In this document: positions 42,669 to 64,000 of the stretch, in pieces
Layout: each line of letters begins with the position of its first letter
How positions within the stretch are numbered: the stretch's first letter is position 1
Assembly: GCA_039621445.1 (NCBI GenBank)
Contig: CP154954.1
Coordinates: 28,113,037-28,177,036 of the forward strand
Source: Euglena gracilis
Lineage: Eukaryota
Direction: 5' to 3'
DNA: 64,000 bases
Notes under the pieces: model-generated
What the model was told of the DNA's origin: nothing
The model's database searches: none
Seen by the model: only the letters and a program-made list of their open reading frames with translations
Position numbers and translations under genes: made by a program

Positions 42669-45400
42669 TTTTTTTTTTTAAGGGGCTCTAGCCGGCTTGC
42701 TGGGTCGCGCGTGCACTCTCTTCTCACCTTGTGGAGTCCAGGGGGGGCGGGCTACCCTTTGCGTGTGTGTTGCTTTTGCCGGCTCCACTCCCCTTTGTCG
42801 CCTCGTTGGGCGGATGCCTTTCGCCTGGCGTGTAGGCTCTGGTTTTTTTTTGGCGGCTTCGTTTTTTTTTTGTGGTGTGGGGGGGGGGCCGCCTTTTTGG
42901 GGGGGGGTGTTTCCGTGGGGAACCTCCGCGCTTTGTGGGTTGTGGCCGTCTTGGTCTTGGTCTTGCTCGCTTTTGGTGTGGTCTGCGGTGGGGGTTGGGG
43001 ACTTACCATGGGTGGAGGGCCTCCTCCACGCGGTCCCTGGCGGAAAGCTGCCGCGCCACGTGGCGCATGAGTGTCACCGATAGTGCTTCATGCATTTCTT
43101 GCAGGGCCCTTGTCTTTGGCCATCCCCGCATGTCTGCGGTGGCCCTTTTGGTGACCTCAAACAGCACCGCCTTGGCAGAGGTCCAGGCCTCCCCATGTGC
43201 TCAGGCCGAAGGGTGAGAAGCCCCACCCCTTCGCCTGACACGGGGGGCCATCCGTCTGCACTTTCCTGGTTTCCACCTGGTTGCAATGCCTGCGGGCATT
43301 GTCCACCACCAGTGGGTGCTCTCCCAGCCCCGCGGGGTGGCTGCAGACGAAATCAACTGCCACGTGTTGCCCCCGTGACCAGTTGATGAGGAGAATGTCG
43401 GCTGGTCTTTTGTTCGCCAAACACTCTGCCTCCTTCTCCACCGCAATGTTGTACCGGGCACACATCGCCGCAAAAGCATCTCGGAATGCATTGTGCCGTT
43501 GGGTGTTTCCATTCTGCTCGCAGCAGACGAAGTGATCCCCGAAGGGATCAATGGACCCCCGACACAGTGGGCACCCCGGCAGCGTGACCCCTGAAGGGAG
43601 GATGGGCAGGCCAAGCCACCACCGTAGTAGCAGCCGGTATTGGGTGTCCGAGAAAGCTGTGTGCTGTGCCTTGCTGGGCAAAGTCCGCAGCCATCCCGTT
43701 GCCACCGGTTGCAGCAACAGCTTGGCCCCAACATGGATCCCGTGGCCAGCTGGCTCGCAGGCACCACCCCACTCTCCTCCGCAGCACCAGAACACGCCAC
43801 CCAACGGTGGTGGGCGGAGAAAGTTGCGGAAATGCAGAGCCAGCGAGTCGACGCGGTCGGCTCTGCCAGGGACCGGGTGAGACGGGCTTGCCAAAAGGGA
43901 ACCGTTGTAGCGTGTCTTGCATGTCCGGGGATGGGGTTGCCAACACCGAGGCTGGCACCCCCACTGCTTGGCTGCCGTGCATCCCCAGATTCAGCAAGGC
44001 CGCCATCCGTGCCGCGGGTTGCAACACTTCGGGGTCCGAGATTCCGAGTCCTCCTTGGCGGATGGGCAGGGAGACTTGATCCCATGAACTCTCGGTGATT
44101 CCCAGTCCGAGGAGATCTTGTACGGCTTCCTGCAGCCGTGCCCTGAGAATGAGCGGGGAGTCCCGTGCGTTTTCTCTCTCTGTTGATCGGAGGAGGTGGA
44201 CCACCCGACATCCGTCAAGACAGTGCCGCACTTGCCCCTCTGGGTATCCCCTGAGCCGTTCCAGGAGCAAGGTCGCCCTGTCCACGGTCTCTTCCCATAC
44301 GGCTTGGCATTGTGGTGCTCTTGGCGTGTCCTCTTGTGCTGTGCGCTGCTCCCGCGGGGCATCAATTGGGACGCCCAGGGTCGTGATGCCCCTCGGTCCT
44401 CCAAAGGGAATCACGGGCACTTGTCGTCCCAAGTGGTCTTCTGCCAAACCGTCTGGGTAATGTGGCCCGGCTTGATTGACCGTTTGCATCCCAGGTCCCC
44501 AAAATTTGCACTTGGCCAAATTGAGGTGGAGGCCTACTCGCTCCAGGACCGTGCTGAGGTCATGGAGGCGGGCCAACACCACTGCTGGTTTCCCCACGAT
44601 GTGGCCGTCGTCGAGGTACCAAGACTCCCATGCCAAGTCCCGGGCAAAGCATTGGTCAAGGGCGTAGTCCAAGCCCAGTGCAAAGCCCAAGGGCCCGCAT
44701 GCGTCGCCTTGATGCACTCCGATCTTGCTTGTACACAGGAAGCGCCCTTGGCAGAACAGCGGACTTGGTCCACTGTAGCAAAAGCGCAGCCAGTTGTACG
44801 CCGTGGGTACCTTGGCCAAGCATCCCCGGAGCATTGCATCCCTGCTGATGGAGTTGAAGGCATTGCGCATGTCCACCTGCAACACCACGTAGTCGTTGTC
44901 CCCTTGGAGGTGGCTTGACTGGACGTAGCGTTGCAGGCCCATGCCCACCATCTCGGCGGCGTTGCGCACTCCCACCCCGCACTGCCGCGGTTGTAGGGCT
45001 GCCAACTCCATCGTCACCGCTTCAGAATGGACAAGGCACTTGCCCACCACTCGCCGGAGGGTGTCCCCGACGGCAATGGGCCGCACCCCCCAATCCTTCT
45101 TGCGGAGCGGGATGAGCGTGGAGGCGCATAGCACTTCTCGCACGCTCTCCGGGAATGATGTGGTCAGGGCCGTCGCAGCAAGCTTGCCGAGGGCTTGGAC
45201 CAGGGGCCCCCCCGGCCCCAGCTTTCGGCAACACTCAATGAGGTGGATTGGACGCAGCCCAGATGGTCCGCCTGCGGACCCCGGGGGGAAGGAGACCACG
45301 GCTGCCCAGGCCCGCTTGGACCACTGCTCGTTGCTCTCCTCTTCGTCCATGCCCTCGTCCACCAGGCGGCAGGCAATCGAGGTGGGCAAATCCCCTGCCA
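42669..45400 (-). mobile_element. 5'-truncated CRE-clade (CRE/SLACS/Cnl1-like) non-LTR retrotransposon: RT, CCHC and restriction-like endonuclease
   Basis: RT motifs GVRPIAVGDTLRR, QVDMRNAFNSISR, GVHQGDACGP, WYLDDGHI; C-terminal CPLC..DPFGDHFVCC...RHNAFRD and RPADIL...VAVDF. Poly-A tail (T run from 42669) and 11-bp TSD GAGCCAGAGCA at 42658-42668 and 45401-45411. Frameshifts near 43750-43900 and 43170. Confidence 0.92.
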
Positions 45401-45444: not shown

Positions 45445-46510
45445 ACACGGTGGGTAGCACAGCTTCACCCAACCGTGCCCCGGGCCCAGGGAAACGTCTC
45501 TTTTGGCCCTCACAAGAGGAACCCCCTTGTGACTCCCTGTGCCGCCACAGGTCGCGGGTTGCTATACTATGGGTGTTATGTACAGAAGAGAGGAGTGCCG
45601 AGTAACTGTGAAGAGTGCCGTGGTTAGCGGTAAGAGGAAGATGAGCAAAGGTGACCTTCAATATATAGTGGGCGGGCAGGGGGGGGGTGTTTGTACCTCC
45701 TTTGCCACGGGATGGCGTGTTTGTGTCGGGATTTTGCTCTTCTTGCCGTTGGATGGCATGTGTGCGTCAGGTCCTTAGGTGGTGGGTCAGGGAGGGAGTG
45801 TCAGCTTGGGCTTGGGCTGTTTTGCTCCATGGATTCATGGGTTGGGGTTAATTTTTGCCTTGGTCTCGAACATATGGCTACAATGACGATGGTGGCATAC
45901 CAAGGAGAGGATATAGAGGAAATGAAGCGGGTAGGGTTCAAGTGGAGGGGATGGGTTAACCAAGGTCAACAGGTGGCAGGTGGTTGGCAAAGGTGTTTAT
46001 TGGGAATACGGGAGGTGGCAACCGGCAGACAGGTCAATGTCATTTGACAGGTTGGTGTAGAAGCTCCATACCAGTTGTTCAGAGATTTCTTTGGCCAGGG
46101 TTAGCGAGAGTCCTTGCCACACTTCTGCTTCGGTTTGGCGCTGAAGCCAACCCTCCCTTTGCCCTATCAAGGCTTTGAGGAGGGTGGACATCAGAGAACG
46201 GCCTTGTTGCCCCAGGCCGCCAAAGCAATCAAGCACAAACGGGGTAAGGCGCCAACCTCGTCTCGAACAAGTTGCGTCATATTTGCGGTGTTTGTCTGCT
46301 TCTTGTTTTTCTTGCCAAATCGGAAGTTGTGCGGCACGGCTCAGAGGGTTGCTTGGGGTCTGTGTGTGACGAATGGTGACGTCGATGGCGACCGGGCCCT
46401 CACTGTCAAGGCGAGGGATGAAGATATCACCAGGGCGGGAGTTGTCATCAGCCCGTTGTTCTTTTTTTGGCTTGGAATCCGGCACGTTGAGCCAAGGAGG
46501 CAAGGAAGTC
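45445..46510 (-). mobile_element. 3' fragment of a second CRE-family retrotransposon (RLE domain plus 3' UTR)
   Basis: ORF 46503-45997 contains RPGDIFIP...VAIDVTIRH...EADKHRKYDATC...GWRLTPFVLDCFGGLG. Confidence 0.85.
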
Positions 46511-46715
46511 TTGGACCGCTGCTAAGAAAGAACTTCAAATTAGGAATTGATCCTATGGTTTCCAGGGAGAGAAAAGCAGGGACAAAAAAAGGAAAAACCC
46601 GAGAGACAAACCTTTTTAAGAAATAAATATTTTTTTGAATTTAAACTTGCTTACTGCTTTAAATGGCGTTTTGAATGGACGCTGTGGTTTCTGTCACTTT
46701 CAGGGATATTCCAAC

Positions 46716-49700
46716 ATGGAACTCGCAATCCCTGAAGCATCTACAACTATTTGTGTCGGAAACCTTCCCGACTATATGAGCAGGAATCACTCTCCAGTGA
46801 GATTTCTTGCTCTTTTTTTGATTGGTTCCTGTTGTAAACTGCTCGTGAATTCCGCCTTATGTTCAAATTCGCAAACGGTGTCCAACGGTGCATCATCAAT
46901 CACACCAAGGCTGGACACCAGGTTGGTTATGCAAGGTTTGGAACGGCACAAGAAGCACAAGCCGCCATTGAATGGCTTGCGCAGGGCTGCTGAAAATGAT
47001 ATGAAGTTTTATGTGAAATTTTCAACCTGACAGCTTCCCTGATGCTCACGGATACCCGATTGACGAGGACTTCCCAAACACTTTGAAAGTTTTCATGTCT
47101 TCAACTCAATTGCGCGATGCCCTTCCTGGCACCCGACCAAAGCGCCCGCTGGACAATGGTTTTGGCGCACCTGCAGCGAAATTCCCACGTTTGGGGGGAG
47201 TGCACAGAATTTGACAACTGTTCAAATGTGCTTGTGAGAGGCCCAGGTTTCTCTGAGCACTTTTTCTGATCTGCAAAGTGTGAGAACCATGAGGAAGTCA
47301 AATCAACCTGGAACCTCACTAATGGAAATGAACCAGTTGTGATGTTGTTTGATTTTGGTTTTTGCTTGTTCAAAAAATCGGAAGAAACAAAGAAAATTTT
47401 GTTTTTGGCAGGGACTCTATTCTTTGGACAACTTGTCTTTTCAAAAACTGACCAAATGCAGAAGCCCACACCAACCAGAACTTATGGAGAGAATGCGAAT
47501 CGCCAAAACCTGCACGTTGGGGGTTGCTGGATACTGTCTGCCTCGCCTCAGAAGACCACTTTTTAGAGCACTTTTGGTGATTCAAGTCCTTGGTTGACTC
47601 AAAGGTACTTGTTCGCTACTCGACCGCCAGTTTATTGTGAGGTTATTTGAAGGGTAGGGTTAGGTGCGCACATGGCCATGTTGCACAACATGTCCATGTG
47701 CGCACCTAACCCTACTCCTTCAATAACCTTAAATATTCCAATAAGACTTTGAAAAATTTCGGTGGCGGTCGGGTAGCGAACAAGTACTGACTCAACGGAT
47801 TCAAGGTCGTTGGGTTCTTGATTACCAGGACCTTTTTGGCGGTTTTTTCCTTGGAGGAATTTTTGTGTGAAGCGGACGCAACAACAAGCAAGGTAAACCG
47901 TCATTGTCAAAAAAAAGGACTTCGGTGCCCTGAGGTGCTTGGGCCACCTCTTCAACCAAGCCACCTCGTTTCACCTCATGTCAAATTCTGAAATGCCTTT
48001 TGCTGCAGCTCCTGGGTTCATTGGTGGCCGTGGTTTTGGCAAAGGTGCTGGAAAAGGCCGTGGGAAAGGTGGTGCACAGGCTGAATTTCAAGGCAATGCC
48101 GACCGGGGGTTCCTGCCAGGCTGTATTTTAGTCGGGTGCCGACCCCACCCCGGGGGGGGGGGGCAGGCACTCCAAGGCCCCCCTGATCCGACCGTAGGGC
48201 ACATGGCCAAAAGTGCCCTGGCACAACCCCGGCGCCGGGGAGCCAAAAATGGCCTATCCTCAAAGGAATGTGCCTGGGCACAGACCGAAATCCGACCCCC
48301 CCGGGGGGGGTAGTGCCCAGGATTTGATATAAGGAGGGCGTACATGGTTTAGGTGGGGGGGTGTCCCCCACCCCCCACCCCTCCTGGCCCGCAGGGGGGG
48401 CCGGACCACCCCACCTGCCAGGGGGGTCCGGACCGACCCTGGGGGGGGGGCACCCGGGACCCCTCCCCAAAAGGGTCATTTTTTCCTCCGGCACTTTGCG
48501 TCGAAAATTTTTGCATTTTTGGCAAATTTTTGGGTACTTATCTGTTATCGCACGACATACCCCCCCCCTTCGGTTATCGCACGACACCCTTTTTTGGGGT
48601 TATTTAAAGGAATAGGGTTAGGTGCGCACATGCTACGTTGCGCTACATGGCCACGTTGCGCTACATGGCCATGTAGCGCAACATGGCCATGTAGCGCAAC
48701 GTGGCCATGTAGCGCAACATTGCATGTACGCACCTAACCCTACTCCTTCAAATAACCCTATAAAACCTAAAAATAAGGCGTCGTGCAATAACCGAAAGGG
48801 GGGGGTATGTCGTGCGATAACAGATAAGTACCAATTTTTGCCCAAAGAGTGCCCAAAATGGCACTTTTGGTCGTTTTGGGGGGTCAAAAATTTTCGGTCA
48901 CCCAGACCGAGCCACTGTTTAGGTGGGGGGGTGTCCCCCCCACCCCCCCCCCCTCCGGCCCCGGGGGGGTCCGGACCCCCCCCCCCCCACCGTCCTTATA
49001 TCAACCCTGGTAGTGCCTGCCTGAGCAGGCACTCTGGACCAGGGTTGGTAAAAAAACAGCATTTTGGGCACTTTTTGGCCCACGACCTGGCAGGCACTGC
49101 CCCCCCCCCCACCTGCCTAAATCACTCCCAAACCCCCTCCCCCAATTTCAATTTCAGCCTGGTGGTGTAGCCTCCAGCCCCTCATCCGTTTATGTTGGAG
49201 GTGTACCCCATGACTGGGATGAGCCCAGGGAAGTGCCAAGTGTTTCCAGAGCACAGACGCAGCATACTTCCAACACACCCCACCATCCGTTACTTGGGGG
49301 GTCAGGCCCAGGCAATTGCTTAAGCACAGACCAACCAACCCCCCCCCCCCCGGGGGGGGGGGACTGGTTTTTTCAAAGTGACTGACTGGTTTTGGGCCCG
49401 GACCCCCTCCCCCCCGGGGGGGGGGGTCGGCCAGGAGTGGGCAAAAGTGGCTTGAGTGACCCCGGCGCCAAAGGCGCCGGAAAAATTTTTTGGGCCTTAA
49501 ATGGCCTAAAGTGACTGGAAAGTGGCCGTTTTTCTGAGTGGCCGACCCCCCCCCCCCCGGGTGACTGGCTGGTTTTTTGAAAATGAGTGACTGACTGGTT
49601 TTTAAAAAAGTGGAGTGACCCCCCCCTCCCCCCCCCCGGTCGGTAAGCAATTGTATGGTCAGGCCGATCAAGATCTTCTCATGCAAAAGCAAAAATCTTC

Positions 49701-52700
49701 GGTCCCAACCTGCCTTTTGAGCCAAGCCCAATTGCCCGGAGAAACCAACCCACCCAAAAGGGGGGGTCCGCACCCCTCCAGTCCCGGAGAGTGACACCCC
49801 CGCTTAAGAGAGAGTGACACCCCATCCAGGCCCTGGGGGGGGGGGTGGGTGCTGGGGTTTTCAGTGTGACTGACTGGTTTTTGGCCTGGACCCCTCCCCC
49901 GGGGGGGGGTTGGCAAAAAAACCCACAAAACTGACCCAGCCGGAAAATTTTTTTGCAGTTTTTTCATGTTTTGGGCCAAGTTTCCCTTGGATTCCAGAGT
50001 GACCGACCCCCCCCCCCCCCGGGGGGTCGTGGCTGACTAGCTTCCCGAAAAAAGTGACTGAAGGATGGCCAAAACGGGCACCCTAACAAAATCCCTTTGT
50101 GTGTGCACCCAGATGAACTTACCCTCACCCCCCCCCCCTATTTGGCCCCTCCCCTAATTGGCTTATTGGGGTCCCGTTGGATGGTCCATTAGCCAATTAG
50201 GGGGGGGGGGTCAGGCTTATTGGCCATTGGCCGGGGTAACCCCCCCCCTAATTGTCCCCCCCCCCCCTAATTGGGGGTCCGAAGGAGCCCGGCCATTAGC
50301 CAAATAGAGGGGGGGGGTGAGGGTAATGAAGGTGTCTGGTAGGTAAAATAGCCCCTCTGTATGTTCCACAGGGTTTGGCCAAGGGTTTTTATGCTTCTGA
50401 AATGGAAAACCATGGAGGTCGTTTCCACCGACCATATGGTCCGGCCGACCATGGTCGGCCCGACCATGGTCGGCCCGACCTATTGTCAAAAGTCCTTTGA
50501 AAAGGGGGGGGGTAATGCGGTTCATTGGCTACCACCTCCCCCCCCCTAATTGACCCCCCCCCCCAAATGACCAAATGCCCCGGGGAAATTTTTTTCTACA
50601 CACAAATTGTGGCTGAGCCCAGATTTCAGCCTGAAAACGTGTTCAGCCAGGGGGCCCCCCGAAGGGAATTAGGTTAAGAAGTCAGACCTAAAATGGGGCC
50701 TGATTTTGGCCCTAATTTGAATCAAATTTAGGCCTGGCAACCCTGATAACCCTAAAATTTCCGCCTTGGAAAATATAAAAAAATTCAGATGGCGGCCCCA
50801 TGCCGAACAAGTACCACTGACCCCCCTTAGGACCGACTTTCCGGGTTTCTGGGACCCCCCAAATGGTCAAATTTTCCTTTCCGGCGCCTTGCACCAACTT
50901 TTTTTGCATTTTTGGCAACTTTGCCAAAACAGAATTCCCCAAATAATACTCCCAGAATATTTTGGTCCACCAAAGTCCCCGAAGGGGGAAGGGGGGTATT
51001 TGGCGAAAATTTTCGTATTTGTATGTTTGGTTGTGAAATGCAAATGGCAAAACTATCCTTAAACCCCCCCATAGTCCCCCTGGCTTTATATGTAAAATTT
51101 TTTTCGTTGTTTTGGATGATAATATTCATCAAGTTTCTACTTGGCCTCCCGGGGGGGGGGGGCAAGTAGAATGTCCAGGGGGCTCCGCAAAAATTTTGGG
51201 TGTTTGGAGTTCGGCCCAACTTTAGGCCTTACTCAAAGAGGGTTAGGTGTAAAAGTTAGGCCGAACTCCTAACCCAAACCCTACTCCATCAATAACGCAA
51301 AAATGTTTTTGACCCCCCTGGCTGGGGCAAGTAGAATCTTGTTGCTGATTATTTATCAAAGGCATTTACAAGGTTTGGCAATTTGATTAATGTCGCAATG
51401 GTGCTCCTTGTGATATTTGGGAATTTCCAAATTGTTTCATTATAAAACAATGTCAACGGAAGGCTGGCAGGTGTGATGGACACATGGCACTGGACACCCA
51501 TTTCCAACAACCAAGCGAGATTCAAAGTGGCTCTTCTCTTCAATTGACTGCCCTCCAGTCCCTGTTTGAAGGATTTGGAACAATCACCAAAGTGCAGCTC
51601 ACTCGTGGAAGCAACCCAGTTGGGAATACCCAGGGATGTTTGCAGTGGAGGCTGTTTCTCATCGATTCCATTGATAGGGAAAAGGTAATGACCCATTCTG
51701 TAACAACTGAGTGTTATACGCTTGCACTGTATCAGAGACCTCGATGATGATTGAGGTTTTTCAAGTTGTTGGTTCACAATCATCACAAATGAAAGATGTG
51801 GTTGACTGAAAATGTCGTTGTGATATTCCAAGGAGGAACCTGCTGCAGCAATGCAAAAGTGTGCTATCCAGTGAAGGCTTTTCTAAACTCAGAAGGCCCC
51901 CCCCCCCGGCGGGGTCACAGACCAGAAATTTTTTTAAGTTTCATGACCCGGTGGATGGGTCCCGGCCGAACCCCCTGGGGGGGGGGCAGGGCGAGTGGGA
52001 ACCATGCCCCCCCGAGCTATTCCCATGGGGCGGGCGGGATTAGGTCACTGTCATAGCACTTTTTATGAAGAAAGTCCAAAAAGTGCAGTCCAAAAAAGCG
52101 CAGTCCAAAATTGACGTTTTTTTTGACGTTTTCAAAAAGCACTTTTTGTCAAAAGTGCTCAATATTGACCATTTGGAATAGCTCGGGGGAGTATGGTGCC
52201 CCGCTGGAGGCAGGGTTTTCTTCTATTCGCGCCGATGTTTTTTTCAGACCCCAAAATTGACCACGAAGGTGCCCCCCCCCCCCCCCCGGAAGCCGAGTGT
52301 TTTGGTCCAGGCCCCCCCCCCCCCCTGCTGGGTCCTAAAAACCCCTCTGACACAGATGGGCTGGAGGCGTTTCGGTTTTCAGTGCGAAGTGCCGAAGAGA
52401 AATGCAAAAGAAACCTCATTTCCACCTCGGCTCACAGCGCCGGAGGAAATTTTTCCCCAGTCTGGGGGTCCCCGGGGGTCTAACTAGTCCATTTTTTCCA
52501 GTGTCCAGCAAAATGGCTAGCCACTGGATCCGCTGAGTTCCTCAAGCAATGGCCTGTTCACAACAGGCGACATTTCCATGATGGTTTACTGGCCAAAAAC
52601 CACAAAACCTGCTGCTTGCTTTACCTGCCGAATTTGTCACCGTCAGTTGATTTTTGTTTAGAATCAGGCACCTGGACACTGAAGCCTGCATCTCTGATGC

Positions 52701-52827
52701 CATTGCATTCATCCACTTCACAACCCCAGAGGAGGCCCAAGGCGCCATCCAGAGCATGAACAACTACCCGCTGGATGAGACCCGTCACCTCGTGGTGCGG
52801 GGCAACACCAGCAGCCCACGAATCTAG
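46716..52827 (+). CDS. Two-RRM RNA-binding protein, paralog 1 (RRM1 RBPMS/MEC-8-like, Gly/Arg/Lys-rich linker), 7 exons
   Basis: Exons 46716-46777, 46837-46978, 47047-47201, 47995-48073, 49167-49222, 51546-51627, 52702-52827. Product: MELAIPEASTTICVGNLPDYITAREFRLMFKFANGVQRCIINHTKAGHQVGYARFGTAQEAQAAIEWLHGYPIDEDFPNTLKVF...GGRGFGKGAGKGRGKGG...SVYVGGVPHDWDETALQSLFEGFGTITKVQLTRGSNPVGNIAFIHFTTPEEAQGAIQSMNNYPLDETRHLVVR. RNP2/RNP1 motifs occur twice. Pyrimidine tract plus AG at 46702-46703. Confidence 0.9.
47604..47788. mobile_element. Palindromic GG-ended MITE
   Basis: GGTACTTGTTCGCTAC / GTAGCGAACAAGTACT; TSD GACTCAAA/GACTCAAC. Confidence 0.75.
48318..49009. mobile_element. hAT-type MITE nested in an intron
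   Basis: CAGGATTTGATATAAGG / CCTTATATCAACCCTG; perfect TSD GTAGTGCC. Confidence 0.85.
48533..48832. mobile_element. Palindromic GG..CC MITE nested in 48318-49009
   Basis: TIR GGTACTTATCTGTTATCGCACGAC; perfect TSD AATTTTTG. Confidence 0.85.
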
Positions 52828-54761
52828 GCACCAGCTTGTTTTTGGCTTGCTTCTCTTGGATGGTGGAGGGATCATAAAGAAACTCAACTTGTGGATATCT
52901 GTTTGCCCAAAAGACAATTTTTTTCAGCCCAGAAACATGTCCGCCCACATAAAAGATTTCACTGCATCCTAGCAGACCCCCTTTGAGGGAGGGGGCTGGA
53001 CTGCAACCGGCAAAAATTGGCCAGTGGAGGTTTCTTGTGAACCCCTGGACAGCCAGTGAAAAAAAACACCATTTGTTAAACCGAAACCTTCCTTGAGGGT
53101 CAGGGGTCATGGGGGATATGTGCCAAAAAATCGCGAAAATGCCAAAAGTAGCCTTTTAAAAAATTTTCGGCGCCTTCAGCACCGAAAAGAAACCCCCCCT
53201 CCCTCTTATACCCCCCCCCCCACTTATAACCCCCCCCCCACTTATAAACCCCCCTCGGGCCGACCAACCAAACCGGGACTTATAACCCCCCCCCCCCCGG
53301 GAAGAAAAACGAAAGTACAATTTTTTTCGGCCGCAAACCACCAAAAGTTGATTTTTTAGCAGTTTTTTTTGAGACCAACCATCAAATTTGGCAAAAATTG
53401 CCAATTTGGGGGGGTTTCGGGGTCATTTTTGGGGGTCGGATTTTCACCAACAATTCCGGGACTTAACTCCCCCCCCCCTTCGGCCGACCAACCAAACCGG
53501 AACTCCATTAAACTTTCGGGGGTTTATCAGTGGGAGGGGAGGTTTATATCCCACCCCCCTTGAGGACCTGGGGGGGGGGGGCTCAGTGGGGGCTCAGCCA
53601 GACCCGCCTGCCCTGCCTACCCCCCGGGGGGGTCCAAGACTAAAAAAAACCCCTGCTTCCGGCACTTTGCACCAGGCGCACAATTTCAGATATGTGCCCC
53701 CCCAGGCACCCTGAAAAAGTATTTTTGGTCCACTTTGAAAGCTTTACCTGCAAGCCGGCATAGGTCACTGTTTGGGAGGCAAACCCAGAAAAAGGCATGG
53801 ATATTTGAACTTTGAGGAGACTCCAAATCTGAAGGAAATATACGACATTTTGGCCTTTTTGGCAGGTTGGACCAACCTCGGGGAAAAGTGAGTGGCCCCC
53901 CGGACCCCCTCCGGGGCGCCCCCCAAGGGGGTGGGTGGAGGGGACCCCTCCCCCCCACCGGAAGCCGGAAGCAGGGCACCTCCCAAGGTACTTTGGAAAA
54001 TGGATGGACAGTTCCCTTCCTCTGTTCCCTCTCGTATTTTAAAAAGAAGCCTGCTCCTCTCCTCTGCATTGTAAAGCACTCAAATTGAGACGCCATAGCA
54101 CAAAGCCAAGAATGATGATCAAGGTATTTCACATATGCAAGCGACGGAGGTTGTATTCTGCCAAAGATACCTCTGAAACACAATCGAGACCGTGATGTTA
54201 CTTTTGTTTTCAGTTTCCTTCCTCGTCTGGGAAGCCCAAAGAACGTAAAAACCATGTGGGATTTGACGCATGTTGATGGCAAAAGGGTCACTCTCAAACC
54301 CATTTGATTTCCTCTGCATGATGTCTTTTTCTCGCGGAAAGCATTGTTCAAATTTCATCAATGGGAGTAGGAAGTGAAAACATTATCTCCAGCCAAAAAG
54401 AAAGCGAAGCTTTCGTTGGGGGACAGTGGTTTTTTGGTTTAAAACGCTGTTGTCAAGTTCTCCATCCATTCATTTTTTTGAGATGTATCTTTTCAATGGC
54501 TGCGGTCACCACTTGCCGCAACTGGTGCTGCACGCCATCCCGAACCTTTCTGAACTCCCTCTTTCCTCCGTTCGTTTGCTGTGCGTTTTAGGCCACAATT
54601 ATCGCCTGATGCCTGAAGAAGGCCTCACTGTTCGGACGCACCATCACTGATGAAGGCGACGGCTCACAGGCACCACCGTCGATCCTCTCACCCCTTTGTT
54701 TTGTGCAGTTCGCATTCCTTCGCGTGAGGTCCAGGGATGAACAGGTTTCCCATGGTTGGCA

Positions 54762-54845
54762 GGCATCCGGGCTTTCACCAGGCATCCGGGCTTTCACCAG
54801 GCATCCGGGCTTTCACCAGGCATCCGGGCTTTCACCAGGCATCCT
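54762..54845 (+). repeat. 19-bp minisatellite (GGCATCCGGGCTTTCACCA)x4
   Basis: Four exact tandem units seen directly. Confidence 0.9.
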
Positions 54846-56096
54846 CGGGGGGTAGTCCAACCCCCACCCCTTTGACCGGAGGGGTCTGAAACCCCCCCCC
54901 CCCCCGGGGTATCAGGTGAGCGGTAGGGGGGTCTGGACTATCCCATTGTTTCAGGACCACACCACCCCAGGGGAGTGGCCAGGGCGGAACGGGAATCGGC
55001 CAAACAGCCAGGGTGGTGGGTGGGGGGGGGGTCGACCCCCCCCCCCCCGCCCCCTGCATGGTGGGTGGGGGCTGGTTTGGAAGCCAAAAAAAATGCCATT
55101 GAAAATCCGAAAAATGTCAGTAAAATTTGACTGTGCCAAAATTTGGTCCACTTTTTTTTTGACGTTGGTTTTTTTCACCCCCCCCCTAAGAATACCAATT
55201 TTTAACCCTGAAAATTTTGAGATTTCTTCTGAAAAAATGTGGTTTTCATCAAAAAATCATGTGTTTTGAATTCATTTTTCAAAAAAATTTGAATTTTTTT
55301 CGGCCAAAATCCCTTTTTTCCCGAAATCGGTGAAGATGCTGTGGTGGGTGGGGGGGGTCGACCCCCCCCCCCATGCCTTCCCGTTCTGCCCCGGGAGTGG
55401 CTGACTGATTTTTTCGGAGTGACTGACTGGTTTTTGGCCCTAGACCCCCCCCCCCGGAGGTGGGGTTTGGCCAAAGTCCTTTTTTGAAAAGTGAATAACT
55501 GGCTTTTTGAAAGTGGAAAGTGACCCCCCCCCCTTGGGGGTCGGCAACCAATGGTATGGTGTGGACCTCCCCCCACCCCCTCCTCGGCAGGTTCCAAAAA
55601 TAGCAAATAGGGCATTTCCCAACAAAAATTGGCTGCCTCGCGCCAAAACCAATTTTCTGTCCGAGAACCCCCCCCCTGGGGGGGTCTGGCCCAGGCACTT
55701 TAAAAAGCTTTCAAAAATTTGTCTTGGAAAATTTTCAAAACAGATTTTAGGGACCAACAAAGTCCTCTCCAGTGAAAAAGTGCACAGCCCCGGAGCTCCT
55801 CAGGGGATTTATGCAAAGCTTGCATATTTTTTTTTGCATTTTTGCTTTTTTTTTGCCTTGCATATTTGGTGAGCCTTGTTGCATCTCCCCCCCCCCCGTG
55901 GTCCAATCCCCTCCTCCCCAGCCTTCCCCCCACAGCCCTGTCCCGCTCTCCTCGTTTGACTGGATAACTCCCCTGTTCATCCTTTCCAGTGGGTCGTCAA
56001 AAAACGCCCTGATTAGCACACTTCAAAAGCTTTTATTCAACACGGTTTCAGTTGCATTTCCACCCTCATTTGCTCTCACAGGTACGCAACAATATT

Positions 56097-59000
56097 ATGG
56101 CATTGGTTGAAGCATCGACCACCATCTGCGTCGGAAACCTCCCAGACCACATATCCAATGGCCCCCCATTTGTGAAAGGAAACCTTTTGCTTTCCTTCAG
56201 GCTGATGTGACAGTTGGGTGACCATTGCCCGCAACACCACGTGAATTCCGCTTGATGTTCAAATTTGCTGCCGGAGTGCAACGATGCATCATCAATCATA
56301 TGCAGGGGACCACAGCAATTCTTCTGATGGGGGCTTTTGGCACCTTGGCTGGAGACATTCACATCATTTGAGCCGAAGTGGACCCCATGCCTGGCGGGAT
56401 CCAGCCAGCCAGCAGCCCCCAGACCCCTCCCCCCCCCCATCGACGAGTTATCTTTTTCCAGCCGCCCAAAGGGCGTGTGGACGGTGACGGATTTTTGGCT
56501 TTCGGGGGTGCAAAATTGGCCAAAATGGGCAAATAACGGGTCGGCTTTGGGCTGGCCAGGCAAATTTTGGATCGAAAAGTTGATTTTTTGCACAATTGGC
56601 AGTTTTTTGGGCATTTTTGGCTTTTCCCAGGTTCGACCACAGGTTGGCCCAGTTCCAGCCAGGGACTCCCCCCAACCTCCCCATATTGCCCTACAGCCTT
56701 TTTCCAGCCAGCCCAAATTTTTCAGCCTCTGAGCTGGACCCCCCGGGGGTGGGTCACCAAGCGACGGGGGTCGTTTGGATTTTCACCTCCAGATTTTGGC
56801 TCAAGAATGCTAACCAAGCTGGATTGGGCTTTTGGGGGACAAGCTGGACCCTTCCACAACCCAGGATTGGGGGGCCCAGCGATTTTTCTTAGGCGGTTTT
56901 CTCAGGGGTGCTCAGGCCTTTTAATTTGGAAGACCCCCCCCCCCCCCCCGGAACTCCCTGGGAGGTTTCGCCATTGCCAAAAATTTTGGGTGGAAATGCC
57001 CTCAGATGGCCCGTTTTGGGGGGGGGGGTTGCGTTTCGGCATCCCTGCACACAGCATCCACGGGGCGCTTGCTGAGTCCCCTGGCACCACCAAGTCAGGG
57101 CACCAGGTCGGTTATGCAAGGTTTGGCACCCCGCAAGAGGCACAGGCAGCAATTGAGTGGCTCTGCCAGGGTCATCCTCACCTTCCAACCGACCAAGCAC
57201 CGGTTCAAAGCCAGAGGCGCATGTTTGGTTCAGCCCACGACGTCCTCTCTCTCAATTCAAGAAAACCCCCTCAAGAGTGATGTCTCACCAGGTTTTCCTG
57301 TTCATCCCTATTTTTCTCAGGCCATTTTCCAGCCAATCCAGCCCCTTTAATTTAGTTTGAATGTGAGTTTCTGCATCGTTTGGATGGGACGGAATTCCTC
57401 CAAGGTTTCGGGCGGCAGTGCGAGCATGCCCCTGCCTCTCACGGCTACCCTCTCGATGAGGATTTCCCCCAAACGCTGAAGGTCTTCATGTCCTCCACGC
57501 AGCTGCGGGATGCTCTGCCGGGCACTGGGATGAAGCGGCCCCTTGGGCAGGCTTCTTTTAAACCCCTCATCTTCTTCAGTCTTTTCGGGGCAGGATTATT
57601 CATGTCTGTCGGGTTTTGCAGACCCGGGGGGGGGGGGCTGCTGCAGCTGGGCCAAAATCAGCCGCAGCAGCACCCCTCCATCTGGCCCTGACCACTCCTT
57701 AGTGTGTGTGTCGGCAAAAAGAATTTTGTGTATCCTGTGTATCGCCAAAAAAATTTTTGTGTTCCCCTGTGTATCACCATAAAAATTTTTGTGTTCCCCT
57801 GTGTATCGCCAAAAGAATTGTATATTCCTGTGTATCCCCATTTTTCTGTTATTTGTAATTGTCCTCCCTCCGCAGCCATAAAGCAAATGTGCTTGTCTTC
57901 TTTCACTTCCTCTCGGGAGCGGGCGGCGTTTGCAAAGCCCCGGATACAATTGCCGCACCCATACCCCAAATCACCTGCTTTTTTGTTTTGTTTTTCTATT
58001 TTGTTTTCTTGGGGTTTTTTTCAAAACAGCTGCAAAAATCGACGAAACGGACAAAAGGAAAAATCAACACGTGCTAGAGGCAGGCTCGCCGAATTGCCTC
58101 TTGGCCGCACGAGGGAGTAGCACCCCTCCCCCAATCACAGCAGCAGGGTGAGATTCCCTGCCACGCTTGGGGTTGAGCCGGGGCCAATGTCCACAGAATT
58201 TTGCGGCAATGGTGTCAACAAATCAACAAATCACAATTTTTGTGAGTTTTTTTTGTGTATTCCGAAATCGTATTTGTGTATCCACAAAAATTTTTGTGTA
58301 TCCTGTGTAGCGCCAAAAAAAATTTGTGTTCCCTTGTGTATCACCACAAAAAATTTTTTGTTCCCCTGTGTATCGCCAAAAGAAAATTTGTGTATTCCTG
58401 TGCATCTTGGATACACACTAAGGAGTGGTCTGATCTGGCCTCACCGCCGGGCGAATCCCAACACCTGCCCTTTTGGGTCACCCCAACAGCCGGGAGGGCC
58501 GAAGGGGGCTTCATCTTTCTTCCCCCTGTCAGGCACCAGGACCCAACACTAACCCTGCGGGGAGTTCGCTGGCGGCAGTAAAATTTTTTTCAATGACCAA
58601 AAATTGGTCAAATATTTTTGTTCCATTTTGGCCACGACAGAAAATTTTTGGGAAATGTCCGGAGATTTCCCTTGTTTTGTATTGACCGCTAAATTTTTTT
58701 TCTTTTTGCACCATTTTTTTGGCCATTTTTTTTACCACCAATCCCCCCTGGTATTGGAAGGTGCCCGGTGTGAGAATGCTGAACGGGTGGCATTGTCCTC
58801 GAAGAAAATCAGAGTGGTTCACCTAAATCGTTCTGTGTGATTCTGTTTTGCATTGCCACGTGCTTGAAAAAAGCCTTCCGCGGACAATGGATTCGGTGGC
58901 CCGGCGTTCAAGATTCCCCGTGGCGGTGCCTTTGGTGGCTTTGGGGGCGGCTTTGCCTACGGGGCCCCGGCGGGCTTCCCCGGCGGCCGCGGGCTGGGCA

Positions 59001-59769
59001 AGGGCCGGGGCCGGGGCAAGGGTGGTGCAGTGGCGAGCCCCACGTCTGTCTACGTCGGCGGGGTGCCCCATGATTGGGATGAGAGCAGGACGGTCGCCCC
59101 ATTCCCATTCCGGGGGGGGGGGTGACTCTGAGGAATTAGTCCACGTGTCCTGCAGCGCTGTCGATTTGCCGTTGTTTCCCCCATCCGCCAGCTCAGCAGG
59201 AGATTTTCAAAACTGTCGATATCTGGCTAGTTTTTTGATATCCGCATCTTTTTCACACCCGTGGGCCCTGATCCGGCCGGCACATTGGAATAGTTATCCC
59301 GGGGATCCCAGTGGGAACCCCCAATCGGTTTCCTGTTTTGGGGCCAAATCACGGTTTTCTATAGGCCCAAGTGAGGGGCCGTCTTCCGTCCAAATGATGA
59401 GCCCTGCGAAGGTGCCCAGTTGGTCCCCGGTTCCCATTTCGCCCATCACAATTGGCGGCTGCCGTCCTGTCCCCGACTGCTCTGCAGTCTCTCTTTGAGG
59501 GGTTCGGCACCATCTCCAAGGTGCAGCTGACCCGAGGCTCCAGTCAGGTTGGGCGTTTGCTGTGCTCTTTTGGTCGGTTCGGCCCGCCGATGGTGCCCGT
59601 CAGGCCTCGCCGACCCCAACCTGGTTCCAACCCGGTGGGCAATATTGCCTTCATTCACTTCACCTCCCCGGAGGAGGCCCAAGGGGCCATCCAGAGCATG
59701 AACAACTACCCCTTGGACGAGACCCGGCACCTTGTGGTTCGGGCAAACACCAGCGCGAAGGGCCTTTAG
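56097..59769 (+). CDS. Two-RRM RNA-binding protein, paralog 2, 7 exons
   Basis: Exons 56097-56152, 56233-56299, 57089-57163, 57440-57544, 58883-59082, 59475-59541, 59629-59769 (TAG). RRM domains are nearly identical in protein sequence to paralog 1. Acceptor-like TCTCACAG ends at 56081. Confidence 0.9.
57693..58427. mobile_element. TIR element with subterminal tandem repeats, inside intron 4 of paralog 2
   Basis: CACTCCTTAGTGTG / CACACTAAGGAGTG; repeated TGTGTATCGCCAAAA motifs; TSD unclear. Confidence 0.6.
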
Positions 59770-59914
59770 GCATGCACCCAATCCGTGTCATTTGTTTGGC
59801 CACAGCTGGGCGAATGGTTGCATGGAGCAATTTGGTAATTCTCAAAGCTACAGGGAAGTTGTTATCTTTTTTAAGTGGCCATTTTGAGACAGTACGGCTG
59901 ACAGGTCATGTTGG

Positions 59915-60408
59915 CAGGGAATTTCTTAAGCCGGAGGGTACCCTACCCCCCGGGGGGGGTCCAGCCAGCCAGCAGCTCAAATCCAGCCAGCAGCCCAAAT
60001 TTGGGCTGGGAGCCCCCCCCCCCCCCCGGGGTCGAGTGAAATAAAGTCGGGTCCAGCCCGGCCGGAGGCCGGGCCAGCCGGCCGAAGGCCGGCCCAGCCG
60101 GCCGCAGGCCGGCCAGCCAACTGGGCTGTCCAGCTCACTTATCCCTGCATTTTTCCCCCTCATCACAGCCCCCCCATCACAGCCCCCCAGCCTTGATCTA
60201 GCTCCACCCATCAAAATGTCGAAAATGTGTTAGAAATTTTTGTTTTTCTTCGACCCAGCCCAGCCCAGCCCGCTCCAGCCCCGGACCCCCCCCTCCCCCC
60301 CCCCCCCCCCCCGGGGGGGGTCCAGCCAGCAGCTCAAATCCAGCCAGCAGCCTTTTTGCCAGCCGGAGGCTGGACCCCCCCCCCGGGGGGTCCTTAAGAA
60401 ATTCCCTG
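59915..60408. mobile_element. hAT-type MITE
   Basis: CAGGGAATTTCTTAAG / CTTAAGAAATTCCCTG; perfect TSD CATGTTGG. Confidence 0.85.
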
Positions 60409-60723
60409 CATGTTGGAGTCATGCCCCCAGAAAGCTTACCATGAGGGGAGTGTGTCAAATTTTGATTTTCAAAAAGCACAACCCAGGAATGAGGGGGGAT
60501 AATGTAGTGCAAAATCCTGAATAAATCCAACCCACACTTGTTGTTAACATCACGAGAAAAATCTTTCTTTGTGCCGGAACCAAGATGGAAAGTTTTTTTT
60601 ATAACCATCTGCTCTGCAACGTTCTTGTCGGTGCCGCCTTGCCAACTTGAAAGTCTGTGTTGCAACTTTAATTTTTAGATTGAAAAAAATGTGCTGGGGC
60701 AAAAAGCCGCAACCACCATGGAC

Positions 60724-61007
60724 CTGGCTTCTTTTTAAGTCACCTGACCCCCCCCCCCCCGGGGGAGGGGGGGTGGGTGGGTGGGTCCGGGCCGGCCCCC
60801 CCCCCTGGGGGGGGGGTCCCGCGCCGGAGGCGCTGGGTATACCTTTTCGGCGCGAAGCGCCGAAAATTTTTGAAAATTGCCTTTAACGGGCCCAATTTTG
60901 GGGGGGGTCCCCGTCCCCCCCCCCCGGGGGGGGTCCCGCGCCACCCTGGGTGGGTGGGGGGGACCCCCCCCCCCCCCCCCCCCCCGGGGGGCTTAAAAAG
61001 AAGCCTG
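60724..61007. mobile_element. hAT-type MITE
   Basis: CTGGCTTCTTTTTAAG / CTTAAAAAGAAGCCTG; TSD CCATGGAC/CCGTGGAC. Confidence 0.8.
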
Positions 61008-61580
61008 CCGTGGACTTTTTTCCCGGCACGCTGTCCAAAAGTCGCCAACAACACTTGCACTGGGTTCCTGGGTTTTGCTTTTTTAATTCAAAATGATGTG
61101 TCTTCAGATAATTTTTTTGCGTGCAAATAAATTGTCAACTCTTTGCAAGTGATTGAAAAAGAGCTTAAATTGCACAAAAAACCATGTTTTTGTTGGTTGG
61201 AGGCAAAATTGCACCACACAACATTTTTATGGGTCCCCCAGGTGAGAATCGATCATTTTTCAATTCGATTTTACATTAAGGGGGCGAAAATGGCCATAAT
61301 GGCTTTTTTTTGAGGACCCCCCCTTTCGGGGGTTGACATAAGGGGGGCACGTACAATCACCCCCCCCCCCTGTTGGTGGTTTTGAGAATCGGTAGTCGTG
61401 CGACCACCGGGTTGTAGGTTGGGGGGCGCGCATGGCCACCCCCCCGTGGTCGGGGTTATGGGAACCCAGTCGGTTGACAGGGGGGGGGCGGGTAGAGCTT
61501 GGGGCCTCCAATATTGGATAAAAATGACAGCCTGGCTGGATTTGGGGGTTTTTTTGCCTGTTTTGAAGGTGCTGCCGGGC

Positions 61581-61856
61581 CAGGGATTTTTTTAAGTTTG
61601 GACCCCCGGGGGGGGAGGGGGAGGGGTAGGGTGGGTGGGTCCGGCCGAGCCCCCCCGGGGGGGGGTCCCCCCCTGGAGGGGGGTGGGATATATTTTTTTG
61701 GCGCTGCAGGCGCCGAAAAAATTCTATTTTTAGCACTTTTCGCGATTTTTCGGCCATTTTTTTTTGTGGGTCCTCCGGGACCCCCTCCCCCCCCCCCCGG
61801 GGTGGGGTGGGTGGGGGGGCCCCCGCTCCCCCCCCCGGTCTTAAAAAAAACCCCTG
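61581..61856. mobile_element. hAT-type MITE
   Basis: CAGGGATTTTTTTAAG / CTTAAAAAAAACCCCTG; perfect TSD TGCCGGGC. Confidence 0.85.
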
Positions 61857-64000
61857 TGCCGGGCACCCCCCCCCCAACCCCCACCCACCTTTTTTCCCGG
61901 CCCACCCCCCAAGGTTCTTGTCCGGACCACCCCCACCCCCACGTGCCAAGGGAGGTCCAGACCGACCCCAGCAGGGAGGTCACCCGGCAACCCCCCAAAA
62001 GGTCAATTTTTTCTTTTGGAGCTTTGTGCCGAATTTTTTTTCTGCATTTTTGACAAGTTTTTGCCCAAACAGTTCCCAAAATGGCACTTTTGACCATTTT
62101 GGGCGGTCGGTCAAAATTTTGTCCTGGCGCTTCGCCAAAAGTTTGCCACCCAGACCAAAAATCGGTCACCCAGACCTCCCCCCCCAGCTGCCCTTATATT
62201 GAAGCTTCCAGGGGTCTTTAAAAAACACCTGGACGTAAAAGGTTCTTTTTTGTTTTTTGATTCTTCAGGTTAAACAATATTGTTGACATGGCTCCAACCA
62301 AGTCGACAATGCTGTGGATGCTTTTTTTGATTTTGTGTTGAAAAGAGCTGAAGACCAAGGGTATCTAGGAATATTTTTTTCATGTATCTTTTGGTTATGT
62401 TTTATGCTTTCCCCTTTTTTCATGCAACAAAAGTGTGCTTATATGTGTGATTTTTGTATTTTTTTCAATGGGGGCATAATGGGCCAAGGTGAGAGAAATG
62501 TATGAAGAAGGGGTTTCTGTCATTGTTTGAGAATTGACGTGGTGAAGTTGTCAGATGTGAGAGGATTGGGGCCAATTCGTGTTGTGGAAATTTTTTTTCA
62601 AAAAATTTACAGTTCATATGGCGTTGTTTTGACCCCCCTGATAATTCATTACTGACTCACATTTCAACCAATATGTCAACTTTCCATGATGGTAAAGTGA
62701 CTGGGAACAGGCGAAAATCCAATTTGCGTTGGAAGGGTGGATACCGGCGTTGGTGCATGTGGTGAAAAATCGGCCCTGGGGAAAAGAGTAATTTACAAAA
62801 AAGGAAATCAAAAATGCAAAAAAATTGTTTTTGCATACTCAAATTGCTGAATTTCATTGCAATCTGGTGGGGGCTCACCCCTGCCCACCCTGTAGTACAA
62901 CGGCTGAACCCATATCTCCTCTTTTTGAGTGGTCGCATTTTGAATCCTAACACTTCCAACCAACTTGCTTTCTTGCCCTCTTGCAGATTTGAAAAGTGAG
63001 CCCCTCAGAAAGATATTGGAGCCAAGAAAAGGGGCCACTGCACCCTCTGCAGTGCAGAGGATTTCTTATCATTCGTCACAAGCAAATGAAAATGGAAACG
63101 CCGCGACGATTTTCTCTACTGGACACCAAACCTTCGGCCGCCAAACCCATATGCGAGAAATGCGCTGGCAGAAGAGCCGGAAATGGGAAAGGGGACGTAA
63201 TGGCGTTCCTTGCATTTACTCCGGACTAATCCTGCTTCCAGAACACCAGAGCTAATCAATGGAAACGAATTTTCGCTTGTGGCTTTGTTGAGGATTCCCC
63301 TTGTGCTTTTGATGGGCTCCAGCTGTTTTGCTTTTTCCCTTTTTTTGTTGAAGTTGAACAAATTTATTTACCATTGATGTTGCTTTTGGCAAAAGGGCTT
63401 GCATTGTTCCCAAAGTTCACAAATTTACAAATTGTGTTGCATCTCAAATGGCAACGTTATTTTATTGTTTCCCCGAAAAGAGTGCACTAAGTGAACGCAG
63501 AGGATTTTCCAAAAGAAAGTTTGACCAAATGCAGCCGGGATGTTGGACGCAAAGATGGAAAAGCATTTGGGGTGGATCTGTTTCTTGTCCCTGTCGTTTC
63601 AGTGTCATCGTTTGGGTGCTTGGCTATCACACTGACCCCACCGACTTTGAATTGTTTGCTTCCTTTGTCTTTTGCCTGCTGACGATGCTATTTGTTCCTC
63701 TGAATCTACAAAAATTTTGCAGAAAGGTTTCAAGTTGATATTGAAGTGTAGTCTGGTGCAAGTTTTTAGAAGTAGTTGGGTTTGTTTGTATCCCACATGC
63801 ATGTGGTTGCTGATACAACCGATAAATTTTGAGGATTTTTTAGATGGATTTTTTGTTGGTTGCACCAAAGACCAAAGACGGATATTCACAATCAACATCT
63901 GCGCTTGTGCTACAAGAAGGGATATTTTGGCAGTCTCTATCAAATAGCTTCTGGGTGGGAGTCAACTGGGCATTACCCTCTTGGCAACAACAATCAAAAA

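Follow-up and report, generated by a model that had tools for sequence, protein, structure and literature searches.

The 64,000-nucleotide (nt) stretch of the Euglena gracilis genome analyzed here (contig CP154954.1 of assembly GCA_039621445.1, positions 28,113,037 to 28,177,036; the window, whose coordinates are used throughout) contains two tandem genes for proteins with two RNA recognition motifs (RRMs), called paralog 1 (P1) and paralog 2 (P2), which share some intron positions and differ in others. Four of the 24 listed sequencing runs were aligned to window positions 46500 to 60000: the RNA raw-read runs X21 and X24, the RNA-like contig run X17, and the DNA contig run X1. Both genes lie on the + strand, are expressed, and are each separately trans-spliced, as indicated by the RNA runs. 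The P1 transcript (46703-54694) has a spliced leader (SL) acceptor at 46703, an ATG at 46716, a stop codon at 52825-52827, and poly(A) near 54694, where the RNA reads have an A-run loose end. The P2 transcript was followed to its stop codon (56081-59769), with the SL acceptor at 56081, the ATG at 56097, and the stop at 59767-59769. A non-genomic 5′ extension, ATTTTTTTTC, is identical at the two genes (301 X21 reads before 46703 and 463 before 56081), and we take it to be the 3′ end of the Euglena spliced leader.

The P1 coding exons are 46716-46777, 46837-46977, 47046-47200, 47994-48074, 49168-49222, 51546-51627, and 52702-52827, and those of P2 are 56097-56152, 56233-56299, 57089-57163, 57440-57544, 58883-59082, 59475-59538, and 59626-59769, all on the + strand. 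Joined, they give open frames of 233 amino acids (aa) for P1 and 236 aa for P2. A 51-aa exon query retrieved EG_transcript_13479 (P0001) and EG_transcript_12387 (P0003) from EukProt; names of this form belong to the E. gracilis Z1 transcriptome according to its published description (PMC6366073). The P1 model and the first entry disagree at a single residue; the P2 model and the second entry have the same sequence. Both proteins match Pfam RRM_1 in two stretches each and score above its curated cutoff of 20.7 (P0001, 77.1 bits, E value of 9.7e-22; P0003, 78.3 bits). Every sequence match in the PDB was an RRM protein, and RBPMS (5det_A, E value of 6.2e-6) aligns with the N-terminal domain. The protein collection held 17 further full-length-like relatives, one of them a Eutreptiella transcript. 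In a tree of 18 rows, from which P0019 (partial) and P0002 (genomic read-through) were omitted, P1 and P2 are each other's closest relatives (clade support 99/98). A tblastn search found no third gene copy in the 64-kb window.

Spliced joints were found for 11 of the 12 coding introns, each in X21, X24, and X17, and in 0 DNA contigs of X1. The P1 joints are 46777>46837, 46977>47046, 47200>47994, 49222>51546, and 51626/7>52701/2; the P2 joints are 56152>56233, 56299>57089, 57163>57440, 57544>58883, 59082>59475, and 59538>59626. Evidence for the twelfth intron (P1, 48074/5-49166/7) is weaker and consists of one X17 loose end at 48074 that continues as the sequence of 49168, together with P0001, which reads uninterrupted over this junction. 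The RNA joints and the two E. gracilis transcriptome proteins therefore back both exon models of a preliminary description made from the sequence alone, and the cDNA evidence brought no contradiction.

No joint is GT..AG. The ends seen at coding joints include GA..TA, TG..GC, and AT..CC, and at the 11 joints no permitted sliding yields GT..AG, with GC..AG and AT..AC borders excluded likewise. A placement as N3-CAG...CTG-N4/5 exists for 9 of the 12 coding introns (eight with N5 and one with N4); the misfits are P1 intron 5, P2 introns 1 and 4, and all three introns in the 3′ untranslated regions (UTRs). The first and last 30 nt can pair in all 14 introns that are not GC..AG, with raw calculated duplex energies of -12.9 to -29.6 kcal/mol. 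A genetically defined code for nonconventional introns, N3-CDG...CH′G-N5-6/purine (the slash marks the junction), has been published by Nomura et al. (2025, PMC12501133) and is reported there to be present in 61.2% of such introns. The CCAGG consensus reported at +3..+7 in E. gracilis (PMC11170887) agrees with the CAG...CTG code seen here. The 12 coding introns all belong to the ordinary nonconventional type of euglenids. Their excision would proceed via the base-paired ends, in which CAG at +4..+6 would pair with a CTG located some 5 nt upstream of the 3′ junction. Introns of this type leave the transcript as full-length circular RNA once the conventional introns are gone; the joints listed in the RNA read tables included no back-splice joint for the introns studied here.

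Each gene has six coding introns, and a protein alignment places three of them at shared positions and three at positions unique to that gene. Thus, 3 of 9 positions are shared, as had been described, and each of the three matches in codon and in compatible phase. At position A (DYI/T in P1 and DHI/T in P2, phase 2), P1 intron 1 (46778-46836, 59 nt, GAG-CAG...CTG-N5; joint in 393 + 428 X21 reads; duplex of -19.6 kcal/mol) corresponds to P2 intron 1 (56153-56232, 80 nt), which has the variant stem CAA...TTG. At position B (WL/HG), P1 intron 2 (46979-47046, 68 nt, a placement that fits the signature) has a 1-nt placement ambiguity (both = 1) that makes it compatible with the phase 0 of P2 intron 3 (57164-57439, 276 nt; both = 0). 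At position C (DWDE/TALQ, phase 2), P1 intron 5 (49223-51545, 2323 nt; duplex of -18.6 kcal/mol) has a 5′ CAG without a matching 3′ CTG at N4-7 and corresponds to P2 intron 5 (59083-59474, 392 nt). The introns of a pair share no sequence similarity beyond chance in local alignments against shuffles, again in agreement with what had been noted: the observed score was reached by 177/200 shuffles for pair A, 127/200 for pair B, and 2/60 for pair C, in which the match is a G-run only.

The introns unique to P1 are intron 3 (47202-47994, 793 nt, PRLGG/V; both = 3; CAG...CTG-N4), intron 4 (48074-49166, 1093 nt, KGG/VAS; signature with N5; 7-nt slide GGTGGTG), and intron 6 (51628-52701, 1074 nt, VGN/IAF; signature with N5). 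The joint of P1 intron 6 occurs in two forms, 51626>52701 and 51627>52702, because of a T/C allele at 51627, their sole difference. Unique to P2 are intron 2 (56300-57088, 789 nt, INH/TKS, phase 0; signature with N5), intron 4 (57545-58882, 1338 nt, RPL/DNG, phase 0; 3′ CTG missing), and intron 6 (59542-59628, 87 nt, TRG/SNPVGN). For the last, the joint leaves a 4-nt ambiguity (both = 4; 59539-59625 to 59543-59629), and the sequence is contained in DNA contig 59341-59802. All six of these coordinate pairs had been proposed from the sequence, and all are placements that the RNA joints allow; five put CAG at +4..+6, and 57545-58882 is the joint itself and has no such placement.

The divergence of the two genes bears on how fast these positions changed. 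Over 229 aligned codons, the proportion of synonymous differences (pS) is 0.757, 76/103 fourfold sites differ, and the nonsynonymous divergence (dN) is 0.10; the G+C content at third codon positions is 0.50 versus 0.72. Since synonymous sites are saturated, the duplication is old, and the high protein identity results from strong constraint, not from youth. The RRM sequences had been called almost identical, which holds for the two cores (72/79, or 91%, and 73/76, or 96%, of residues); the overall identity is 194/229 (84.7%). The turnover after duplication had also been called rapid. This is unsupported, as the saturation (76/103 fourfold sites) allows a very long time for six changes. Three intron positions outlasted a divergence that saturated synonymous sites, and inheritance of positions A, B, and C from the preduplication gene is the best explanation for them. 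The paralog-specific positions are best explained by turnover of the slow, ongoing, lineage-specific kind that is on record for introns of this class.

One of the unique introns resembles the exons that flank it. P2 intron 6 is colinear with the start of exon 7 (approximately 16 nt) and then the end of exon 6 (approximately 58 nt); 56 of the 70 ungapped columns are identical, and a further 21 columns are gaps. The best colinear model scores 39, a value reached by 0/200 re-optimized dinucleotide shuffles (mean 22.2, standard deviation 4.3, maximum 38) and by 0/1400 real 87-nt windows from the same 64 kb (mean 16.3, maximum 36). Scored against the 13 other junctions, P2 intron 6 had a mean of 18.2 and a maximum of 30. 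The 13 other introns, each scored on its own flanks, reached 10 to 23, and no score exceeded the maximum of the corresponding controls. The P1 and P2 exons differ at 18 aligned columns; P2 intron 6 agrees with P2 at 16 of these, with P1 at 0, and with neither exon at 2, and the model rebuilt from the P1 exon sequence scores 14. Furthermore, removal of one unit of the duplication restores the original frame. Judging by its sequence, P2 intron 6 is a tandem copy, since decayed, of coding sequence from P2 itself, and its source thus would not be a mobile element. Because it carries P2-specific bases, it appears to be a late gain that followed most of the divergence between P1 and P2.

The CAG and CTG of P2 intron 6 are absent from the intact exon and lie in mutated or inserted parts of the copies. 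The absence of CAG and CTG from the undamaged exon suggests that the splice signals arose by later changes. The intron would accordingly have begun late in the history of P2, when about 74 nt of coding sequence became duplicated in tandem, after which mutations and a small insertion would have given the CAG/CTG stem. The duplicated segment (within 59475-59643) starts about 2 to 8 nt from the acceptor of shared intron C and ends about 0 to 4 nt from the P1 intron 6 site, and from these breakpoints the repeat unit approximates one 82-nt P1-type exon. The coincidence of the breakpoints may be due to chance or may hint at an exon-level event.

Several observations weigh against the exon-derived origin of P2 intron 6. 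The similarity came to notice before the model was fitted to it, the 3′ third of the model aligns ambiguously, and the alignment needs its 21 gap columns. One shuffle reached 38 versus the observed 39, and the 16:0 count is biased toward P2 because the alignment was optimized on P2. A blastn-short comparison of the intron with its own mRNA gives an exact match of only 8 nt, while the same intron has a 12-nt exact match (59554-59565) to the P1 3′ UTR (54573-54584; E value of 0.006), which indicates that short chance matches do occur. About one 12-nt match is expected by chance over all comparisons of introns with mRNAs, and this one was treated as chance. With blastn-short, the introns gave matches of 7 to 14 nt only against both mRNAs. 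On balance we lean, by a small margin, toward the general proposition that a nonconventional intron can be born without a mobile element, through a tandem duplication of exon size in which one unit is removed by structure-guided splicing.

A second unique intron, P1 intron 4, is flanked by an 8-nt direct repeat, GTGGTGCA and GTGGTGTA, which is 7/8 identical. Junctions were compared in a fixed 8-nt register (5 exon and 3 intron nt versus 5 intron and 3 exon nt). The scores out of 8 were 5, 7, and 1 for P1 introns 3, 4, and 6 and 1, 3, and 5 for P2 introns 2, 4, and 6; the shared introns scored 2, 1, 3, 4, 1, and 2. In this register, the direct repeat is 7/8 in one intron, 5/8 in two (P1 intron 3 and P2 intron 6), and ≤4/8 in nine, among them all the shared introns. 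Of 132 noncognate pairs, 5 reached ≥5/8, with a maximum of 6/8. Half of the repeat bases at P1 intron 4 (8/16) are intronic and free to vary under the published code, so the retention of a 7/8 repeat while neutral sites became saturated suggests that this intron is much younger than the duplication. We infer its polarity from the survival of the repeat, which argues that P1 intron 4 is a postduplication gain. Its birth would have involved an 8-nt target-site duplication, which fits the insertion of foreign DNA at a staggered break.

This signal resembles that of a recently gained intron. Intron 4 of gapC, present in one strain of Euglena agilis, is reported to have 8-nt direct repeats at its junctions, and double-strand-break repair was proposed for its origin (Milanowski et al. 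2016, PMC4770533). Likewise, P1 intron 4 has an 8-nt repeat, placed in the register of 5 exon and 3 intron nt. Unlike the gapC case, no intronless allele of P1 intron 4 was seen among the DNA contigs (0 with any joint), and its recency is argued from repeat survival only. Other facts count against a young P1 intron 4. The repeat sits in a GGT-rich, glycine-coding stretch. According to PMC12501133, 84.4% of Euglena introns are slidable and short junction repeats are general; as short repeats are common, those of 3 to 5 nt say little about youth. When donor and acceptor regions were aligned locally without restriction, no intron gave a significant result, the best being P2 intron 6, at 6.6% of the null. 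The start of P1 intron 6 does not repeat the preceding exon in tandem to a significant degree (P = 0.53), and P1 intron 6 and P2 introns 2 and 4 gave no polarity signal in either direction.

Together, these results fit an account that we regard as probable: two tandem, trans-spliced two-RRM genes arose by an old duplication, inherited introns A to C, and then underwent slow turnover that included at least two postduplication gains, P2 intron 6 and P1 intron 4, followed by later inflation of introns. This inflation would have come from high-copy repeats that became nested inside the long introns. DNA word depth reaches 10^4 to 10^6 in long-intron interiors. The interior of P1 intron 3 holds a nested foldback repeat at approximately 47605-47787 (inverted repeats), and that of P1 intron 4 consists of nested palindromic repeats. 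Repeats recognized in the window occur only inside long introns and at no intron end. Because the repeats are interior only, and the ends are single copy in tests and mutually dissimilar, the repeats seen here inserted secondarily, adding length to introns that were already present.

The preliminary description had held that the unique introns are mostly gains by element insertion. Gain has support for two of the six, and perhaps for a third; element insertion is unsupported where it could be tested, because the one traceable intron is exon derived, the repeats are interior, and five ends are single copy. Spelled out, this idea takes most of the six unique introns to be recent insertions of mobile elements resembling MITEs (miniature inverted-repeat transposable elements), whose inverted ends became the paired intron ends. 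This is a standing published proposal (PMC3935182, PMC11282704, and PMC12501133), and it accommodates the inverted-repeat ends of all the unique introns, the 8-nt target-like duplication at P1 intron 4, and the abundance of transposon-like repeats at the locus. In contrast, no intron pair shares ends beyond the CAG/CTG core (91 pairs), the in-window repeats reach no intron end, P2 intron 6 derives from an exon, and synonymous saturation counters the idea that the changes were rapid. Introns 3 and 4 of P1 were considered as members of one element family and rejected, as their end score of 21 (maximum 22, mean 11.5 over the 91 pairs) is not an outlier and marks an ordinary pair.

Copy number of the intron ends points the same way. 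Taking depths of 94 to 163 as the single-copy level, DNA contigs of run X1 cross five unique-intron ends from the exons at this depth: 46521-47440 (depth 135, P1 intron 3), 51274-51914 (depth 150, P1 intron 6), 55894-56467 and 56961-57339 (depth 94 to 117, P2 intron 2), and 58779-59119 (depth 163, P2 intron 4). The ends of P1 intron 4 occur once, with no second copy in the 64-kb window. The introns here are like introners, as these are described in PMC11282704, in their inverted ends, target-like repeats, and new positions within genes. They are unlike introners in that no multicopy family was recognizable in the 64-kb window and one DNA run, that the ends are single copy where visible, and that the repeats are secondary inside the introns. 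The size of the window does leave room for intron-end families that are multicopy elsewhere in the very large genome, a consideration that counts against our account; still, we consider a predominantly MITE-like origin of the six introns unlikely.

Some of the repeats in the window have recognizable structure. A foldback repeat family with the core GGGTTAGGTGCGCACATG has six arms that form three elements, at 1915-2058, 47657-47712, and 48615-48740, versus 0.02 expected; the latter two lie inside the P1-specific introns 3 and 4. Nested in P2 intron 4 is an element of about 740 nt (57690-58430) with perfect 18-nt inverted ends (57690-57707 and 58413-58430) and internal repeats of a TGTGTATC-type unit, which looks like a DNA transposon remnant. 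A 613-aa open reading frame (ORF) on the - strand (43548-45389), situated about 1.3 kb upstream of P1, matches RVT_1 (E value of 7.6e-11) and is probably a retroelement. Three ORFs beside it had no Pfam match.

Differential loss would require an ancestor with all nine introns, of which each copy precisely lost three, for example, via recombination with reverse-transcribed mRNA. The empty sites are exact in the protein alignment, the time since duplication was long, the number of events equals that under gains, and the reverse transcriptase ORF just upstream indicates that the enzyme activity exists in the genome. Losses do not account well for P2 intron 6, whose P2-specific exon bases place it after most of the divergence of P1 and P2, nor for P1 intron 4, which retains 7/8 repeat bases despite saturated neutral sites. 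The missing introns are also interleaved with retained ones, neither adjacent nor clustered toward the 3′ end, and tubulin genes are reported to have undergone 15 gains of nonconventional introns versus 11 losses of conventional introns (PMC3935182). We consider loss as the general explanation to be quite improbable.

For the four unique introns other than P2 intron 6 and P1 intron 4, gain may be the direction, as the literature favors it. What tells against extending our account to them is that, by parsimony, six losses are as good as six gains. Metagenome scans for homologous loci gave 136 pattern matches with a seven-sequence alignment and 181 with P0004, none of them confirmed by tblastn. 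Two relatives on long contigs, P0007 (1.06 Mb) and P0014 (210 kb), have uninterrupted protein models, from which no inference about introns is drawn.

It is very unlikely that P1 intron 6 and P2 intron 6, at sites separated by 18 nt, go back to a single ancestral intron relocated in P2 by an exon-duplicating event, which would make eight positions and not nine: the duplicated unit of P2 does end about 0 to 4 nt from the P1 intron 6 site and start about 2 to 8 nt from the intron C acceptor, as would an 82-nt P1-type exon 6, but this coincidence could be chance, the exon-derived sequence covers the whole 87-nt intron with no foreign core of an old intron, the ends of P1 intron 6 are unlike its flanking exons (own-flank score of 22 versus a control mean of 18.8), and the summed end score of the two introns, 19, ranks ninth of 91 pairs.

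The preferred reading, an old duplication followed by slow turnover with some late gains, agrees with what is published on euglenids. Nonconventional introns are reported to occupy positions confined to a species or a small clade, 15 gains having been inferred for tubulin genes (Milanowski et al. 2014, PMC3935182), and a gain within a species has been observed (PMC4770533). Nonconventional introns are given as 71.8% of all E. agilis introns. Their origin is still called unclear in PMC12501133 and PMC4770533, with MITE and break-repair hypotheses, and MITE-like insertion or break repair is the source proposed in PMC3935182, PMC4770533, PMC11282704, and PMC12501133. The introns of P1 and P2 are like those described in PMC3935182, PMC12501133, and PMC11170887 in their non-GT/AG borders, with CAG at +4..+6 pairing with CTG near -8..-6, and likewise in their short junction direct repeats, in positions that are unconserved between related genes, and in lengths from tens to thousands of nucleotides. 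Unlike the cases in those accounts, in which orthologs were compared across species, the comparison here is between tandem paralogs in one genome, and all 12 coding introns are nonconventional, yet three positions survived synonymous saturation.

In the exon tandem-duplication model of spliceosomal introns, a duplicated AGGT supplies both splice sites. P2 intron 6 is like the product of this model in consisting of the end of one copy and the start of the next. It is unlike it in being nonconventional, with no GT..AG, and in that its CAG/CTG stem and N3/N5 spacing are absent from the undamaged exon. A full-text literature search returned, among the titles and abstracts of the matches listed, no report of a euglenid nonconventional intron derived from tandem duplication of a host exon, and we regard this proposed origin of P2 intron 6 as the new element of the analysis. 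The comparison of the paralogs thus adds a valid new case to a known pattern, and the earlier inference of element insertion repeats a standing hypothesis; rapid, element-driven turnover is neither new nor supported as stated. The locus is mainly a well-documented case of known euglenid intron dynamics, with the exon-derived P2 intron 6 as an interesting detail.

As each paralog displays the empty site of the other, the locus is a natural experiment validated by RNA. It indicates that some positions are very long-lived and that gains continue long after duplication, at least one of which seems to have drawn its raw material from an exon of the gene itself. The similarity of an intron to its own flanking exons is a simple, scalable test of one route of origin. 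If the origin proposed for P2 intron 6 is true, this would be the first traceable source sequence for nonconventional introns, and genome-wide scoring of introns on their own flanks would show how often birth by exon duplication happens.

Introns in the 3′ UTRs, which had not been counted previously, number two in P1 and at least one in P2, and no position is common to both genes. Those of P1 (52832-54119 and 54159-54496, + strand) surround a 39-nt exon (54120-54158; joints 52831>54120 and 54158>54497) and have paired, non-GT/AG ends that lack the CAG/CTG signature. The P2 intron (59770-62986, 3217 nt, + strand) begins right after the stop codon: 589 X21 reads continue past 59769 with a 30-nt consensus that matches the window exactly at 62987. 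Its GC..AG ends and pyrimidine-rich 3′ end make it look conventional, and its end duplex is weak (-5.4 kcal/mol). The first P1 intron starts 4 nt after the stop and that of P2 directly after it, so that introns of different types lie at close positions.

The two-RRM family to which the genes belong is conserved, with members in Eutreptiella and many environmental sequences. Among P0004 to P0018, a GYARF motif is invariant, an HDWDE-type motif is near-invariant, and VVRxNTS is found at the C terminus. Expressed variants occur in both genes, at 51627, 52779, 52821, 56239, and 57130, each in 26 to 69% of X21 reads. Run X1 has the alternative base in DNA at all five sites, and we read them as allelic or haplotype variation and not as editing.

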